DNA of 64,000 bases, from contig CAVYRO010000003.1 in the NCBI GenBank assembly GCA_963771005.1, positions 868,657 through 932,656 of the forward strand, read 5' to 3'. Under the pieces are notes generated by a model, which saw only the letters and a program-made list of their open reading frames with translations, ran no database searches and had not been told where the DNA came from. Below are positions 1,816 through 42,627 of this stretch, piece by piece. This DNA comes from an uncultured Bacteroidales bacterium (GTDB taxonomy: Bacteria > Bacteroidota > Bacteroidia > Bacteroidales > GCA-2748055). Numbering within the stretch: position 1 is the first letter of the stretch; every line of letters starts with the position of its first letter. Both the position numbers and the translations under genes were made by a program.

Positions 1816-3612
1816 CTATTCCCATCCCGGATTCTGATACATGCCCGGATACAGGAGCGCCTGATTCCGGTTGATGGGCAGCCAGTAATGCTTTGGATCT
1901 TCGAAGACCCTCTTTTTTATTACTGATCTCACAAAGGATTCGGGGGTCCAGTCCTTATCAAAGGAAAGGTCAACGCAATCGAGATCCAGGTGAGACGTAT
2001 GCCATCTTCTTGTATCATACCAGTAATGACCTTCAAAGCAGAATTCCACCGTTCTCTCGTTGCGGAGAAGGTCCATAAAACTGTCGTATCCCGGGGCTGC
2101 AGCAGTGGCTGCAGGCATTCCCGCTCTCTGGCGTACGATATTGAGCGCGTCTACTGCCGTAAGATCCGCACCCGGCGCCATACCTGTTGGTCCGTAAGCT
2201 GCCGTAACGGCTTCGGCATAATCGAGATAAACTTCAGCAAGCCGCATAAGTGGTGAAATGATCCTTAAATTGTTATAATCCCTGTCATAACCGTTCGCTC
2301 CCACCGGCCAGAATTTTTTGATCAGGTATGGGAGTGTGATCTGCGCCTGTGAATTTTTATCGCTCCCTTCCCCTACATAGAGGTATATTTTTGATCTTTC
2401 GTCGTAGCCATGTTGCTCACGGTCGATGATAATGTATTTCCTAAACCTGGGATCCCTGTTCTCCCAGCGTTTTGTACTATCGCTGTCATATTCCACCTTG
2501 TATCGCGTCCCGTCGGCCATTTCAAATTTATCCACGAAGAGCTGGTTGACCTGTTCATTATACCTTCCTCCCATCCTGGCGAAGCTGTACTGCCTGGAAA
2601 TATAGCTCTCATGATCATAGGGTCCCTCGTTCTTCCTGATTTTTTGCCAGATGGTCTCGCTGGTCCTTGGAATGATCCCGTCGAGCCTGGCGAACATGGT
2701 GAGGATATCATCGAAATTTGTCATTTGGTAAGCGCCGGTCCTGGCCAGCTTGATCATTTCCCACCCTGCGGCAGCGGCCTTTTGGCAATATTCCTGGTTA
2801 TAAGAGTAGTCATTCCCGGAGAATTTATTCATAAGCGGACTGCCTGCATACAACAGCATTTTGGCCTTATATGCCATTGCGGCTCCTTTGGTGGTTCTGC
2901 CGAAATTGGCGCCCGGACGCTGACCGCCAACAACGGTATTGTCCCAGTCGACGGGCAGAAGGGAGATTGCCCTGTCATAATCCTCCACCACCTTGTCCGC
3001 ACATTGCTGATAGGTAAGACGGCTTAGTTTCACTTCATCACCGGGAGAATATACGGCGTCGATATAGGGCATGCCTCCGAAGGCATCGATGATCTGCTGG
3101 TGGAAATACGCCCTGAAAAAATAGATCTGTCCCTGGATAAGCTGTTTCTCTTCTTCCGTGGCATCTGACAGGAGAGGGAGGTTTTCCAGCGCGACGTTAC
3201 ATCTTCGGATCCCGCGCCATCCCCCGGTCCATATCCCGCCTCCCCCGTTATCCTTAAAAATACCGTAAGCGTATTTTCCGTTCATGTAGAGAGAAGTATA
3301 ATCGTTGAATGAATAATCATCCGCTCCGGCAATATACCAGTAGTTGCCTCTCCATGAAGTATATGCGGGCGACCAGCTTATGAAATCATTCAGGGTTTCT
3401 CCCCCCATATTTGCCGTAGTGGTGGGATATGTTGTATTATAGTTGATCACCTCACCGTAGTTGGCATCAAGAAATCCCTGAAAGGATTCATAAGTTCCGA
3501 AAATATCCTCCTCCGACACGGTTGCCTCGGGCGTCTTATCCAGGTATTTCTCGCATGAGGCCAGGAAGATGGCGCTCATTGCGAGGATCAGCAGATAACC
3601 GGTTGTTTTCAT
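1816..3612 (-). CDS. SusD/RagB-family nutrient-binding outer-membrane lipoprotein
   Basis: ORF 1816..3642 encodes 608 aa. The likely true start is MKTTGYLLILAMSAIFLASC at 3612, giving a lipoprotein signal with Cys. The gene lies immediately downstream of a SusC gene, and the SusC stop overlaps the alternative ATG at 3642. Length and composition are typical of SusD. Confidence 0.85.
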   Translation of the reverse strand: MKTTGYLLILAMSAIFLASCEKYLDKTPEATVSEEDIFGTYESFQGFLDANYGEVINYNTTYPTTTANMGGETLNDFISWSPAYTSWRGNYWYIAGADDYSFNDYTSLYMNGKYAYGIFKDNGGGGIWTGGWRGIRRCNVALENLPLLSDATEEEKQLIQGQIYFFRAYFHQQIIDAFGGMPYIDAVYSPGDEVKLSRLTYQQCADKVVEDYDRAISLLPVDWDNTVVGGQRPGANFGRTTKGAAMAYKAKMLLYAGSPLMNKFSGNDYSYNQEYCQKAAAAGWEMIKLARTGAYQMTNFDDILTMFARLDGIIPRTSETIWQKIRKNEGPYDHESYISRQYSFARMGGRYNEQVNQLFVDKFEMADGTRYKVEYDSDSTKRWENRDPRFRKYIIIDREQHGYDERSKIYLYVGEGSDKNSQAQITLPYLIKKFWPVGANGYDRDYNNLRIISPLMRLAEVYLDYAEAVTAAYGPTGMAPGADLTAVDALNIVRQRAGMPAATAAAPGYDSFMDLLRNERTVEFCFEGHYWYDTRRWHTSHLDLDCVDLSFDKDWTPESFVRSVIKKRVFEDPKHYWLPINRNQALLYPGMYQNPGWE

Positions 3613-30480: not shown

Positions 30481-31623
30481 ATGAAAAGCCAATCTAAACA
30501 AACCATCTGTGTACATGAAGGCCGGGTGGCCGATAAATTCTCGGGCATAAACACCCCGGTTTACACATCTACCTCCTACGGTTACCTGGATAGAGAGGAA
30601 AGATATTACCCGCGATATTTCAACGTTCCCAACCAGAAGGCACTGATCGACAAGCTTTCCAGGCTGGAAAATACCGAATCCGGACTGATCTTCGGTTCGG
30701 GTATGGCGGCTATCAGCACAACTCTCCTCAGTTTACTGGGGAAGGGTGACCATGCCATTTTCCAGAAGGGTCTGTACGGGGGAACGATCCATTTCATCCG
30801 GCAGGACCTTGAGCGTTTCGGCATCGAATTCACCATCGCTGCCAGTAACCCCATTTCAGCCTTTGAGAATGCCATCCGGAAAAATACGAAGGTCATATTC
30901 ATCGAAAGTCCTTCCAACCCGTTGCTTTCCGTAACCGACCTGGAAGCCATTGCGAATCTGTGTAAATCCCGGAATATCATCTCCGTGATCGATAATACCT
31001 TCGCGTCTCCGATCAATCAGAACCCAGCTGATTCTGGTATCGACCTCATTATCCACAGCGCCACCAAATACCTTGGCGGACATAGCGATATTTCCGCCGG
31101 CGCTGTTTTGGGCAAGGAGGAACATATTGCTGCCATTAAGGCAACATCGTTGAATCTTGGCGGTACATTGAATCCTCAGATGTGCCATTTGCTTGAAAGG
31201 AGCATGAAGACCCTCGCCATCAGGGTTGCCAGACAGAATGAGAATGCGATGCGGATCGCACGATTTCTTCATGATCACCCGAAGATCACAAAGATTTATT
31301 ATCCCGGTTTGCCGGATCATGAAGGATATGGAACGGCAAAAAAGCAGATGCTTGGATTCGGCGGAATGCTTTCATTTGAACTGGAGGGGCAGGATTCTTA
31401 TGAATTCCAGAAAAGACTTGAACTGATCAGACCGGCCATGAGCCTGGGCGGGATAGAATCAACAATATGTTCGCCGGCCTTAACATCACACAGGCACCTC
31501 ACAAAGGAACAACGTGAGGATGATGGCATACGGGACAGCCTGCTCAGGCTGTCGGTGGGGATTGAAGATGTGGATGAACTGGTGCAGGATCTGGAACAGG
31601 CGTTTGAAAGGAAACGGATTTAG
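30481..31623 (+). CDS. Cys/Met-metabolism PLP-dependent enzyme (cystathionine gamma-synthase, beta-lyase or gamma-lyase family)
   Basis: The PLP-lysine context is HSATKYLGGHSD. Other matches are ..IFIESPSNPLL.. and the C-terminal LLRLSVGIEDVDELVQDLEQA. Confidence 0.85.
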   Translation: MKSQSKQTICVHEGRVADKFSGINTPVYTSTSYGYLDREERYYPRYFNVPNQKALIDKLSRLENTESGLIFGSGMAAISTTLLSLLGKGDHAIFQKGLYGGTIHFIRQDLERFGIEFTIAASNPISAFENAIRKNTKVIFIESPSNPLLSVTDLEAIANLCKSRNIISVIDNTFASPINQNPADSGIDLIIHSATKYLGGHSDISAGAVLGKEEHIAAIKATSLNLGGTLNPQMCHLLERSMKTLAIRVARQNENAMRIARFLHDHPKITKIYYPGLPDHEGYGTAKKQMLGFGGMLSFELEGQDSYEFQKRLELIRPAMSLGGIESTICSPALTSHRHLTKEQREDDGIRDSLLRLSVGIEDVDELVQDLEQAFERKRI

Positions 31624-31744
31624 GAGGCAAGAGGAAGAATGAATATGGAACAGGGCGATCGTGAATCATGAAGTACATTAATCGCTGTGATCTCTGAATT
31701 ATGAGATCGTGATGATGTTTTTAGGATATTTCACCATGTAAATA

Positions 31745-32340
31745 ATGGAAACCGCTCCGCGGTTTATGGTTTATCCCGCCTCCTACTGCAGGTAGAATTT
31801 CAAAACCCCGACGTCTGTTTCATGGAACCAAATCCTGTCCGGATATATAAAATTTCTAAGATTAAACTCATTCCAGGGTTTTGAAATTCAACCTGCAGCT
31901 AATTAATGGGCACCGCTCCGCGGTGGGTTCAACCTGGGAATGAGATCCGACCTATGAATTAAATTTGCATTTTTTCCCTGATGAAACCCATTTATAGCAT
32001 GGGAACCGCTCCGCGGTTTATGGTCAACCCTGCGTCCTATGCAGGTAGAATTTCAAAACCCCGACGTCTGTTTCATGGAACCAAATCCTGTCCGGATATA
32101 TAAAATTTCTAAGATTAAACTCATTCCGGGTTTTGAAATTCAACCTGCAGCTAATTAATGGACACCGCTCCGCGGTGGGTTCAACCTGGGAATGAGATCC
32201 GACCTATGAATTAAATTTGCATTTTTTCCCGGATGAAACTCATTTATAGCATGGGAACCACTCCGCGATGGATTCAATCCCGCGAATGAAATCCATCGCA
32301 ACAATGGGTTTGCAATAACCGGGAATGAGATCCGAGTATG
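31745..32340. repeat. 252-254-bp tandem repeat, two near-identical copies plus a degenerate third; each full copy contains a 23-nt inverted repeat
   Basis: Unit starts (ATGG[GA]AACCGCTCCGCGGTTTATGG) are at 31745 and 31999, and in degenerate form at 32251. The arms CTGCAGGTAGAATTTCAAAACCC (31786-31808) and GGGTTTTGAAATTCAACCTGCAG (31876-31898) match at 22 of 23 positions. The same pair recurs at about 32040-32061 and 32128-32150. Confidence 0.9.
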
Positions 32341-32404
32341 AAATTGATTTGTATTTTATGTCATTCGAAGGAAGAACAGCCCGGAGGGCTGGCCATGTTT
32401 TAGC

Positions 32405-32476
32405 CATGGGTTGGAGCAACAGGCGGATAAATTCTGTGGAATGGCCATTTTTTTCGCCTGTTGCTCCTACCCATGG
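32405..32476. other. Long perfect-stem hairpin (21 of 22 bp stem, 28-nt loop) in a non-coding region
   Basis: CCATGGGTTGGAGCAACAGGCG (32405-32426) pairs with CGCCTGTTGCTCCTACCCATGG (32455-32476). The inner 13 bp are perfect. Confidence 0.8.
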
Positions 32477-32610
32477 TTGAACGCGGGAGTTGCCACTAAA
32501 CCATGGAGTGGTTTCCATTGTTCACTATAAGCAAACCATAGGAATTCGATTTCTTCATGGTTGATTCCAACCGTGGATTGTTCTGACTTAAAATTTAAAA
32601 CGAGCCGAAT

Positions 32611-33163
32611 ATGAGAAAAGTGATTATGCAGATGAATGTCTCACTGGATGGAGTTGCCGACCATAATGTGGCCATTGCCGACAATGAGTTGCATGACTTT
32701 GCAACGGAGCAACTCGAGGATACGGATCTCCTTCTGTTCGGAAAGGTAACGTATCTGCTTATGGAAAGTTACTGGCCCCATACACATGAAGATCCCGAGG
32801 CTACCCCGAGCATGGTGGAATTTGCACAGAAATTCAATGCCCTGCCCAAGATCGTATTTTCCCGGACCCTTAAGGAGGCTCGCTGGCAAAATTCACGGAT
32901 AGTCACAACTGATGCGGCTGAAGAAGTGCGCAAATTAAAACGGCAAGCTGGGGAAAAATATAGGTGTCGGCGGAATTGCTTTAAGCAGGGAATTGATGAA
33001 AGAGCGACTCATCGATGAATACATCATCCTTGTCCATCCTGTGATCTGGGGAGAAGGAAGGAAGTTATTTGATGGCTTGGAAGACAGGATAAATCTAAAT
33101 TTGATCAAAACACGGATTTTTAAATCGGGTGTAGTTGTTTTACGATACGAATCCAAGGGATGA
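32611..33163 (+). pseudogene. Dihydrofolate-reductase-like protein (RibD_C family), third paralog, frameshifted in the G4A5 run at 32950-32958
   Basis: ORF 32611..33018 reads MRKVIMQMNVSLDGVADH...EEVRKLKRQAG and then loses homology. The shifted frame continues KNIGVGGIALSRELMKERLIDEYIILVHPVIWGEGRKLFDG...VVLRYESKG*, with the stop at 33161-33163. Confidence 0.75.
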
Positions 33164-41875: not shown

Positions 41876-42005
41876 GGCTTTTTTTTTGGTGACCTGGTAT
41901 TACCGGGTGACTTTAAATCGGTACGAATGTACTACAATGTAACAAGCTCTTCAATCAACAAATCAAAAAATTCTTCAGGTGACGGTGCGTGTGGTCTTCT
42001 TGCCC

Positions 42006-42137
42006 GGGCGTAACCTTACCATGGGCATAACCTTACCATGGGCGTAACCTAACCACAGGCATAACCTACCACGGGCGTTACCTAACCACGGGCGTAACCT
42101 TACCACGGGCGTAACCTTACCACGGGCGTAACCGTGG
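42006..42137. repeat. 17-bp tandem repeat, about 7.8 copies
   Basis: The unit GGGCGTAACCTTACCAC and variants start at 42006, 42023, 42040, 42058, 42073, 42090, 42107 and 42124. The array is preceded at 41950-41985 by TCAACAAATCAAAAAATTCTTCAGGTG, the 8-mer/junction motif of the main family. Confidence 0.9.
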
Positions 42138-42627
42138 CTAATACAATGAAACCCCTCCGGGGTGCCGGGAACACGATCATCATATATTATGCGCGTGACC
42201 TTACCTCGGGAGTAACCATGAGTAATACAATTAAACCGCCTCCGGGGTGCCGGGAACACGATCATCGTATACAATGGACGTTTTGGTGGGTAATACAATT
42301 AAATCGCCTCCGGGGTGCCGGGAACACGATTATCATATATTATGCGCGTGACCTTACCACGGGAGTAACCATGAGTAATACAATTAAACCGCCTCCAGGG
42401 TGCCGGGACCACGATCATCGTATACAATGGACGTTATGGTGGGTAATACAATTAAATCGCCTCCGGAGTGCTGGGACACGATCATCGTATATTATGTGCG
42501 TGACCTTATCACGGGCGTAACCATGAGTAATACAATTAAACCACCTCCGGGGTGCCGGGACCATGATCATCGTATACAATGGACGTTATGGTGGGTAATA
42601 CAATTAAATCACCTCCTGTGGCAGATC
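42138..42627. repeat. 152-153-bp tandem repeat, about 3.2 copies, each made of two related half-units
   Basis: Both half-units begin TAATACAATTAAA(C/T)CGCCTCCGGGGTGCCGGGAACACGAT. Half H1 ends CAATGGACGTT(T/A)TGGTGGG, and half H2 ends TTATGCGCGTGACCTTACCACGGGAGTAACCATGAG. Phase marks are at 42221, 42374 and 42526. Confidence 0.9.

Follow-up and report, generated by a model that had tools for sequence, protein, structure and literature searches.

What fills the gap of about 1 kb between a gene for a Cys/Met-metabolism PLP enzyme (30481-31623) and a RibD_C gene (32611-33018)? The gap lies in the window, by which we mean the whole stretch of DNA that was analysed: 64,000 nucleotides, corresponding to C3:868657-932656 of a genome (G000) of 6.1 Mb in 10 contigs, which is 99% complete. 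(Positions without a contig name are those of the window.) A first-pass annotation, made from the sequence alone, had found no credible ORF in the gap and had described a duplicated, structured unit there, which it took for either a MITE-like insertion or tandem copies of a structured non-coding RNA gene. The gap does lack a plausible gene: no ORF in 31624-32610 is longer than 92 amino acids, and the ORFs that are present overlap the repeat modules described below. Between the PLP-enzyme gene and the repeated block there is a hairpin that is likely the terminator of that gene; the block begins 34 bp downstream of this hairpin. On the other side of the block, the RibD_C ORF encodes 135 amino acids and covers positions 1-122 of the 197-position Pfam model, and could be either a truncated form or a paralogue that is short.

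Modules of the array

Tandem Repeats Finder reported one tandem array at 31745-32267 (period 252, 2.1 copies, 95% matches, no indels). A repeat search found families of direct repeats at a spacing of 252-254 bp within it, and by BLAST the second copy of the unit is 96% identical to the first. The duplicated unit of 252-254 bp that had been annotated is therefore real. Each unit also contains the 113-nt hairpin that had been described, with 23-nt core arms that differ at one position. We call this hairpin H_A. The repeat search placed its arms at 31786-31823 and 31861-31898 in copy 1 and at 32040-32064 and 32125-32149 in copy 2, and the arm sequences CTGCAGGTAGAATTTCAAAACCC and GGGTTTTGAAATTCAACCTGCAG are found in both copies. 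As had been noticed, the SacII-type motif ACCGCTCCGCGGT occurs twice per unit. Two parts of the earlier description need to be corrected. What looked like a decayed third copy (32251-32340) is actually a degenerate mini-hairpin and tail that lead into a second type of module (B), and the repeated block does not stop at 32340 but extends to 32518, closing with this module (Table 1).

We delimited the modules by cutting the array-bearing regions at a recurrent motif, ATGGnnACCGCTC. Module A1 (about 162 nt) has a mini-hairpin (h1, AACCGC-TCC-GCGGTT), then a spacer, then H_A. Module A2 (about 93 nt) has a linker, another mini-hairpin (h2, CACCGC-TCC-GCGGTG), and an AT-rich tail (T). Module B (about 203 nt) has a T-like head, the mini-hairpin CAGCCC-GGA-GGGCTG, CCATTAATTAG, a 73-nt hairpin (H_B), and AAACCGCGGAGCGGTTTCCAT. 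Read from the other strand, B is organised like A: h1 and a spacer come before the central hairpin, and CTAATTAATGG and a TCC-loop mini-hairpin come after it. The stems, however, differ in sequence. The linker follows the pattern CTAAT..AATGG, and the mini-hairpins of the design are GC-rich. H_A and H_B are built alike as well: the foot has 8 bp, the A.A mismatch comes at the same position, and a stem of 12-14 bp follows. When we folded the sequences with DNA parameters, h1, H_A, and h2 of copy 1 in the window formed three separate hairpins, and the reverse complement of the window's B gave the same order (h1, H, h2) as A. The repeat search also showed that the ends of the block are inverted relative to each other (31745-31765 versus 32498-32518, 21 nt, imperfect, 17 of 21 matching). 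As a whole, the A..A-B block is a large imperfect palindrome with inverted ends, and it resembles a REPIN cluster.

Table 1. Features of the gap between the PLP-enzyme and RibD_C genes (window positions)
Feature	Position	Strand	Comment
Hairpin with T-rich tail	31686..31711	+	terminator-like site after the PLP gene; outside the repeat
Module A1, copy 1	31745..31905	+	h1, 20-nt spacer, H_A, start of linker
h1, copy 1 (AAACCGC-TCC-GCGGTTT)	31749-31765	+	within A1 copy 1
H_A, copy 1	31786-31898	+	113-nt hairpin: 8 bp, A.A mismatch, 14 bp, 67-nt loop
Linker CTAATTAATGG, copy 1	31899-31909	+	overlaps the start of A2
Module A2, copy 1	31906..31998	+	h2, GGTTCAACC, tail T
h2, copy 1 (CACCGC-TCC-GCGGTG)	31911-31925	+	within A2 copy 1
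Tail T, copy 1	starts with GGGAATGAGATCCGA at 31936	+	AT-rich; includes TAAATTTG
Module A1, copy 2	31999..32157	+	h1 at 32004-32018; H_A at 32040-32149
Module A2, copy 2	32158..32250	+	linker at 32151-32161, h2 at 32163-32177, tail T
Degenerate A2-like junction	32251..32320	+	decayed mini-hairpin AACCAC-TCC-GCGAT; GGATTCAATCC...GAAATCC segment with internal partial duplication
Module B	32321..32518	+	mirror-image homologue of A
T-like head of B	32321-32376	+	precedes the B mini-hairpin
B mini-hairpin CAGCCC-GGA-GGGCTG	32377-32391	+	followed by a degenerate reverse linker
H_B	32404-32476	+	8 bp, A.A mismatch, further stem of 13-14 bp; followed by GTTGAAC
Terminal AAACCATGGAGTGGTTTCCAT of B	32498-32518	+	17/21 reverse complement of the first 21 nt of the block

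Dispersal and conservation in the genome

The first-pass annotation had left further copies to be looked for by BLASTN, and they do exist. Searching the genome with its own A unit, we found 21 full or near-full copies at 8 loci, mostly in tandem arrays of 2-7. These copies are 80-100% identical across the genome, which excludes a chance origin of the unit. The B consensus matched 27 copies at 10 loci, including the window's copy (C3:900977-901174, 80% identity over 204 nt). Altogether the A/B family occupies about 10 loci, which are all intergenic (in gaps between ORFs) and are mostly tandem arrays. Self-comparison of the intergenic regions that bear arrays showed that the repeated DNA goes well past the 253-bp unit and that both orientations of the modules occur inside one array. 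The arrays begin with ATGGrAACCGCTCCGCGG, and 8 of the 10 blocks end with its reverse complement. There are also short forms, which have an h-type head and B modules with H_A absent or partial (at C10:528310-528670 and near 25k on C3), and a locus on C5 has 44-bp sub-repeats akin to those of the window's junction at 32251-32320. The 113-nt hairpin was never found outside a full unit in this genome.

The copies are more alike within a locus (96.3% identity) than between loci (86.9%), which indicates dispersal followed by local amplification or homogenisation. Target-site duplications were not consistently present at the array junctions that we inspected (6 left and 8 right). The lack of target-site duplications at array ends fits movement of the HUH type rather than the DDE type.

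Conservation is unevenly spread along the unit. Identity between loci is 96-99% for the H_A arms, the linker, and h2, but 79-82% for the loop, the spacer, and the tail. Constraint is thus concentrated on the hairpins. We found no compensatory changes within the A family, as its stems are invariant. (This invariance could result from recent origin or gene conversion instead of selection.) Across families, the pairing of the mini-hairpin is kept through two-sided changes at 4 of its 6 pairs, and the TCC loop is invariant. In a set of hand-picked sequences, the covariation score of the mini-hairpin was 0.37, compared to 0.11 in shuffles, and none of the 500 shuffles reached it; slid registers scored near zero.

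Judging by eye, the genes next to the arrays are diverse: they include kinase-like, transporter, PEP-carboxylase-like, oxidoreductase, and outer-membrane proteins. (These types were read from the translations; the family search covered the window's own neighbours.) Again by eye, an ORF of 247 amino acids that adjoins the A/B array near 1237k on C8 (C8:1237452-1238195) resembles the C-terminal portion of an IS4-like DDE transposase. The orientation of the arrays relative to neighbouring genes is mixed. An effect of the window's array on the PLP-enzyme and RibD_C genes, as a terminator, an insulator, or a stabiliser of mRNA ends, is possible.

We did not find an empty site for the array in the congeners G001, G003, or G004. 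The genes downstream of the PLP-enzyme orthologue differ, so synteny is not kept there and there is no orthologous site to compare. The PLP-enzyme proteins are only about 70-73% identical among congeners, so non-coding DNA is not expected to align either. By BLAST, the A unit had no real matches in 40 relatives, and an exact 27-mer from H_A and the linker was absent from public genome contigs and from metagenome contigs (0 matches in each). We considered that the family might be private to this species, but the 13-nt core of the mini-hairpin, which is abundant in three congeners, speaks against this.

Related repeats beside Y1 transposase genes

Specifically, this core, ACCGCTCCGCGGT, has 33, 57, and 5 copies in those congeners (the reversed pattern, as a control, has none). 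The congeners' ACCGCTCCGCGGT repeats form tandem arrays of 234, 250, and 261 bp with the same scheme. The array on C9 of G004, which is the one that we inspected to its end, closes with an inverted element. In G003 (C12) and G004 (C3), ACCGC-type repeats directly flank genes for a Y1 transposase, which we call Y1b. Compared with each other, the Y1b proteins of G003 and G004 show 73% identity; compared with a Y1 protein of this genome, Y1a, they show 46-48%. We found no orthologue of Y1b in this genome, which is 99% complete; the best tblastn match was Y1a, at 46-48%. Since this genome seems to have no Y1b lineage, A/B would be either an orphan population or one that is served in trans by Y1a.

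Y1a is encoded by one of three Y1_Tnp (PF01797) genes in the genome. It has 149 amino acids (C8:90232-90678), an HVH motif, and its tyrosine lies in RYVMNQENHH. The gene is bracketed by a sister family of repeats, X: two inverted copies lie upstream of it, and downstream 14 X-like units follow one another in direct tandem. This arrangement is REPtron-like. The X element has the parts AACCCC-TCC-GGGGT, spacer, CCACGG-GCGTAA-CCGTGG, CTAATACAATGrA, and TCCCC-TCC-GGGGA. In pattern searches, the X core has 97 copies in this genome and none in 40 relatives. Single dispersed copies of X have the order h1, spacer, H, linker, h2, as A does, and the DNA folds agree. This makes A an element of the X type, with a central hairpin enlarged from 18 to 113 nt. 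The fold order h1, H, h2 is shared by A, the reverse complement of B, X, and the flank of the Y1 gene in G004. In G003, the sequence that flanks the Y1 gene contains these parts too, but the minimum-energy fold computed for it is different. The architecture of A/B is common to X, which brackets a Y1/HUH gene in this genome, and to the congeners' ACCGC-TCC-GCGGT arrays, which lie beside genes of a second Y1 lineage. The A/B arrays of this genome have no Y1 gene next to them; the nearest is about 10 kb away. We also considered ranking X and A/B by age. Their mean identities (90.5% for X versus 86.9% for A/B) are too close for this, and the selection of X copies is too biased, so we rejected any ranking.

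Several satellites lie near these repeats. In the window, at 42000-42165, about 8 tandem units of 17-18 bp (ACCACGGGCGTAACCTT) come before an X-type core (CCGTGG-CTAATACAATGAAACCCC-TCC-GGGGTG, at about 42133-42164). These units duplicate one arm of that element's central hairpin together with the hairpin loop. Here too, the family has grown a satellite from its own parts. A second partial X core lies at 42220-42250 (in the region 42200-42260). Upstream of Y1a, between the inverted X copies (C8:89700-89990), there are tandem units of about 48-50 bp (…CATCGTATTACTCATGATCCCTGCATCGT.TTCAAAGGGATTT…) that are unrelated to X in sequence. In G004 (L035, about 330-520), downstream of the neighbours of the PLP-enzyme orthologue, there are satellites of 8-10 bp (GGAAGTTA/GGGATG, CAACTCAACAA, and AATCACCAA). 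These resemble the satellites that flank X in this genome, and such tails may, by this resemblance, be genus-wide.

We also examined what kind of Y1 proteins these are. All three from this genome have the signature Y---Q--HH (YxxxQxxHH), which fits subclass 1.2. Y1 proteins scored 49.5-52.9 bits with the IS200 model of NCBIfam (the cut-off is 55). The model for REP-associated transposases, NF047646, gave no hit or 18.5 bits (the cut-off is 80), and does not place them in the RAYT clade (class 2 TnpA-REP). To see if bracketing by inverted repeats is general, we compared the upstream and downstream flanks of 27 Y1 loci, both orthologues and paralogues, from relatives and from distant Bacteroidales, Balneolaceae, and Calditrichia genomes; distant homologues that are just 28-36% identical to Y1a were taken into this test. 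An inverted match between the two flanks was found for 18 of the 27 loci, as against 17 of 108 mismatched pairs of flanks.

The other Y1 genes of this genome have different surroundings. The second (C6:74900-76500) has a distinct family of hairpins on its flanks (such as GGCCACCTCCGGAGGCC and GCGCACCTACGGAGCGCC) as well as tandem arrays of about 100 bp, in which CGAATATCGATAGGG forms a sub-repeat of 15 bp. This hairpin family is also found in G003 (L036, about 3000-3250), beside the PLP-enzyme orthologue. The third (C3:36100-37700) is embedded in directly oriented repeats, each about 300-400 bp long. Sequence from its 3' end onwards recurs upstream and twice downstream, and the repeats hold AACCTTATTTTAATTTTCAACCTTAATAGG motifs; this flanking design is unlike that of X or A/B. 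In G004 (C4:345569-348303), there are three tandem orthologues of Y1a, which are 64-66% identical to the gene in this genome and about 1.1 kb apart, with clusters of inverted three-hairpin repeats between them. Three tandem copies are unusual for a class of enzymes that is described as low-copy.

Origin of the array and comparison with known systems

We consider it probable that 31745-32518 is a single array of a modular, non-coding, REP/BIME-like (or REPIN-cluster-like) family, which is orphaned or cross-serviced. The hairpins would fold in single-stranded DNA and would be the substrates for recognition and cleavage by a Y1 enzyme, which would have spread the element to about 10 loci. The arrays would then have grown in place, by slippage, by unequal recombination, or by repeated insertion beside an existing copy. 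In this genome, A/B would now be an orphan population, or else be served in trans by the resident Y1a that is associated with X. Rather than a new RNA gene, the repeat is most likely DNA of a selfish or semi-domesticated kind. Against this explanation stand the distance of every A/B array from a Y1 gene in this genome, the scores of the Y1 proteins below the NCBIfam cut-offs, and their signature of a subclass that was published as generally free of hairpins (PMC6006769).

Could the array instead have arisen with no transposase at all? A REP-like seed, without function, might have been spread by the host's recombination and by slippage. The much higher identity within loci than between them agrees with this, as do the absence of the cognate Y1b gene and the many other tandem and mosaic repeats in the genome. 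But slippage alone would hardly yield about 10 unlinked intergenic loci with the same termini (ATGGrAACCGC... / ...GCGGTTTCCAT). Neutral drift of a satellite also does not account for conservation that is focused on the hairpin arms, or for the link between the hairpin design and Y1 genes, which recurs across genomes. We therefore think that a neutral satellite is unlikely. It is harder still to defend the RNA genes of the first-pass annotation. In the most specific form of this idea, the units would be small RNA genes or cis-acting structured RNAs, and a promoter in tail T would drive the next A/B body, giving hairpin RNAs that are partly complementary to each other. (The -7 box of Bacteroidota-type promoters is TAnnTTTG.) The sequence TAAATTTG in the A2 tail fits this box in most copies, the hairpins are stable in DNA-parameter folds, the small hairpins with T-rich runs look like weak terminators, and 5 of the 8 arrays checked are directed at the downstream gene. 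However, the T head of B is TTGATTTG, which does not fit the box, and a scan with a sigma-70 model (which is not the right model for Bacteroidota) found fewer sites than in shuffled sequences. An Rfam scan with permissive E-values gave no family match above noise: the best hits were miRNA models with E-values of 0.77-10, and two scored 21.1 and 20 bits, where the gathering scores are 101.7 and 67 (Rfam 15). The long stems are all Watson-Crick, with no G-U bias towards one strand, so neither strand is singled out as RNA. The invariant stems within the family, the occurrence of modules in both orientations within one array, their mixed orientation relative to neighbouring genes, and the use of the same hairpin design to bracket transposase genes also argue against RNA genes, and overall we consider this explanation quite improbable. 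(We also checked if the GGTTCAA motif has a tRNA or tRNA-like origin, but ARAGORN found nothing.)

The other suggestion of the first-pass annotation, a MITE-like insertion, holds in part. The family is dispersed, non-coding, non-autonomous, and locally amplified. It is not a MITE that is defined by 23-nt inverted repeats. For a classical MITE, a DDE transposase would have acted on the 23-nt arms of the hairpin or on the 21-nt termini of the block. There are terminal inverted repeats at both of these scales, and one array adjoins the ORF that resembles a truncated DDE transposase. But H_A never occurs without the rest of the unit, the ends of the blocks lack target-site duplications, and among the BLAST hits there was no longer element with the same termini, so we regard a DDE-mobilised MITE as very unlikely. 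We give slightly less weight still to attC-like recombination sites of an integron-like system. Both H_A and H_B are bulged at a fixed mismatch, and GTTGAAC at the foot of H_B fits GTTRRRY, as in attC sites. However, the hairpins are not separated by cassette ORFs, the tandem units (of 253 or 203 bp) are nearly identical, and we saw no recombinase among the ORFs of at least 100 amino acids that flank 8 examined arrays. The linker and the mini-hairpins instead tie the unit to the repeats that bracket Y1 genes.

Locally, a REP-like array is of small import: it accounts for a gap of 1 kb without genes, and it is a warning not to annotate that gap as an RNA gene or MITE. Its wider value is as further evidence that a group of small Y1/HUH enzymes in Bacteroidota, which had been described as free of associated repeats, has cognate repeats with multiple hairpins. 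Like the REP, BIME, and REPIN sequences of Proteobacteria, these repeats bracket the gene, are dispersed, and cluster in tandem. A/B further illustrates that the central hairpin can expand from 18 to 113 nt while the foot, the linker, and the mini-hairpins stay, and that a type of repeat can exist without the lineage of enzyme that it flanks in sister species. Both the expansion of the hairpin and the absence of the enzyme could help in studying how repeats are recognised and how long they persist. We tentatively put forward a wider proposal, which we see as doubtful but worth stating: the Y1 enzymes of subclass 1.2 (in Bacteroidota, Balneolaceae, and Calditrichia) may be RAYT-like, each lineage with its own three-hairpin analogue of REP that builds tandem arrays of 200-260 bp, and A/B may have outlived the loss of its cognate Y1b. 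If A/B did outlive Y1b, it would offer a natural test of the fate of REPIN-like populations after the loss of their transposase: persistence, decay, or a switch to another enzyme.

A literature search found no published description of this array, so we compared it to known systems. The Y1 transposases of subclass 1.2 are low-copy enzymes of Bacteroidetes and Cyanobacteria, with a mean length of 148 amino acids and the motif Y---Q--HH (PMC6006769). The proteins here agree in size (146-152 amino acids), in their HUH, WQ, and Y---Q--HH motifs, in low copy number, and in having Bacteroidetes as hosts. In the published account, typical terminal structures are generally absent from this subclass, and the table entry for associated structures is "no" (Quentin et al. 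2018, PMC6006769). In contrast, the genes here, at 18 of the 27 loci, are bracketed by inverted hairpin elements, which are also dispersed in the genome.

The palindrome-associated transposable elements (PATEs), which derive from IS200/IS605 elements, are likewise non-autonomous and hairpin-bearing, lack target-site duplications, and are presumably mobilised by Y1 enzymes as single-stranded DNA. In the IS200/IS605 elements, the ends are not inverted repeats and the transposase is multi-copy and lies inside the element, whereas here a gene that is single-copy in this genome has inverted copies of the repeat on its two sides. The BOX elements of Streptococcus pneumoniae consist of boxA, a variable number of tandem boxB, and boxC, with modules of 45-59 nt. 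Like A/B, they are modular, intergenic, and non-coding, with variable internal tandem modules and complementary terminal modules, but they have no sequence relationship to A/B, and we know of no link between BOX elements and a Y1 transposase.

The closest parallel is with the REP/BIME/REPIN-RAYT systems of E. coli and P. fluorescens SBW25. Their palindromic units, too, are extragenic and number from tens to hundreds. They build mosaic arrays, in which both orientations occur, and tandem clusters of near-identical units that are hundreds of bp long, and the repeats are specific to a species or lineage and seem to co-evolve with the enzyme. These systems also have a low-copy Y1/HUH gene that is bracketed by inverted copies of the repeat, beside a cluster. 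In Pseudomonas fluorescens SBW25, for instance, REPINs and REPs form tandem clusters, and RAYT genes lie beside such clusters (PMC3116915). Here, a low-copy Y1 gene is flanked by its own inverted repeat in the case of X and in the case of the ACCGC-type repeats of G003 and G004; A/B in this genome lacks one. A REPIN has two inverted homologous units that form a larger hairpin, and we find this arrangement in A and the reverse complement of B, which share their architecture and h1.

There are several differences as well. A REP is a single palindrome of 20-40 nt, while the unit here has three hairpins and about 100-250 nt, with an expanded central hairpin (113 nt in A and 73 nt in B). The tetranucleotide tag of REPs (GTAG or CGTC, at one end of the palindrome) has no conserved counterpart across A, B, and X. 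(GTAG does occur in H_A of 9 copies at 3 loci, as CAGGTAG in the window, in the array near 413k on C3, and in one copy on C5; the others have GTAA or GTAC.) In place of class-2 RAYTs, the proteins here carry the signature of subclass 1.2 and fail the NCBIfam model REP_Tyr_transpos. And, unlike the RAYT systems, A/B has no Y1 gene that is adjacent or of its cognate lineage in this genome. The three-hairpin design, the expanded central hairpin, the subclass of the enzyme, and the apparent loss of the cognate lineage are of interest mainly to specialists. In kind, the feature is an ordinary one: it is an analogue of the REP/BIME/REPIN clusters, with a different clade of enzyme and a more elaborate unit.
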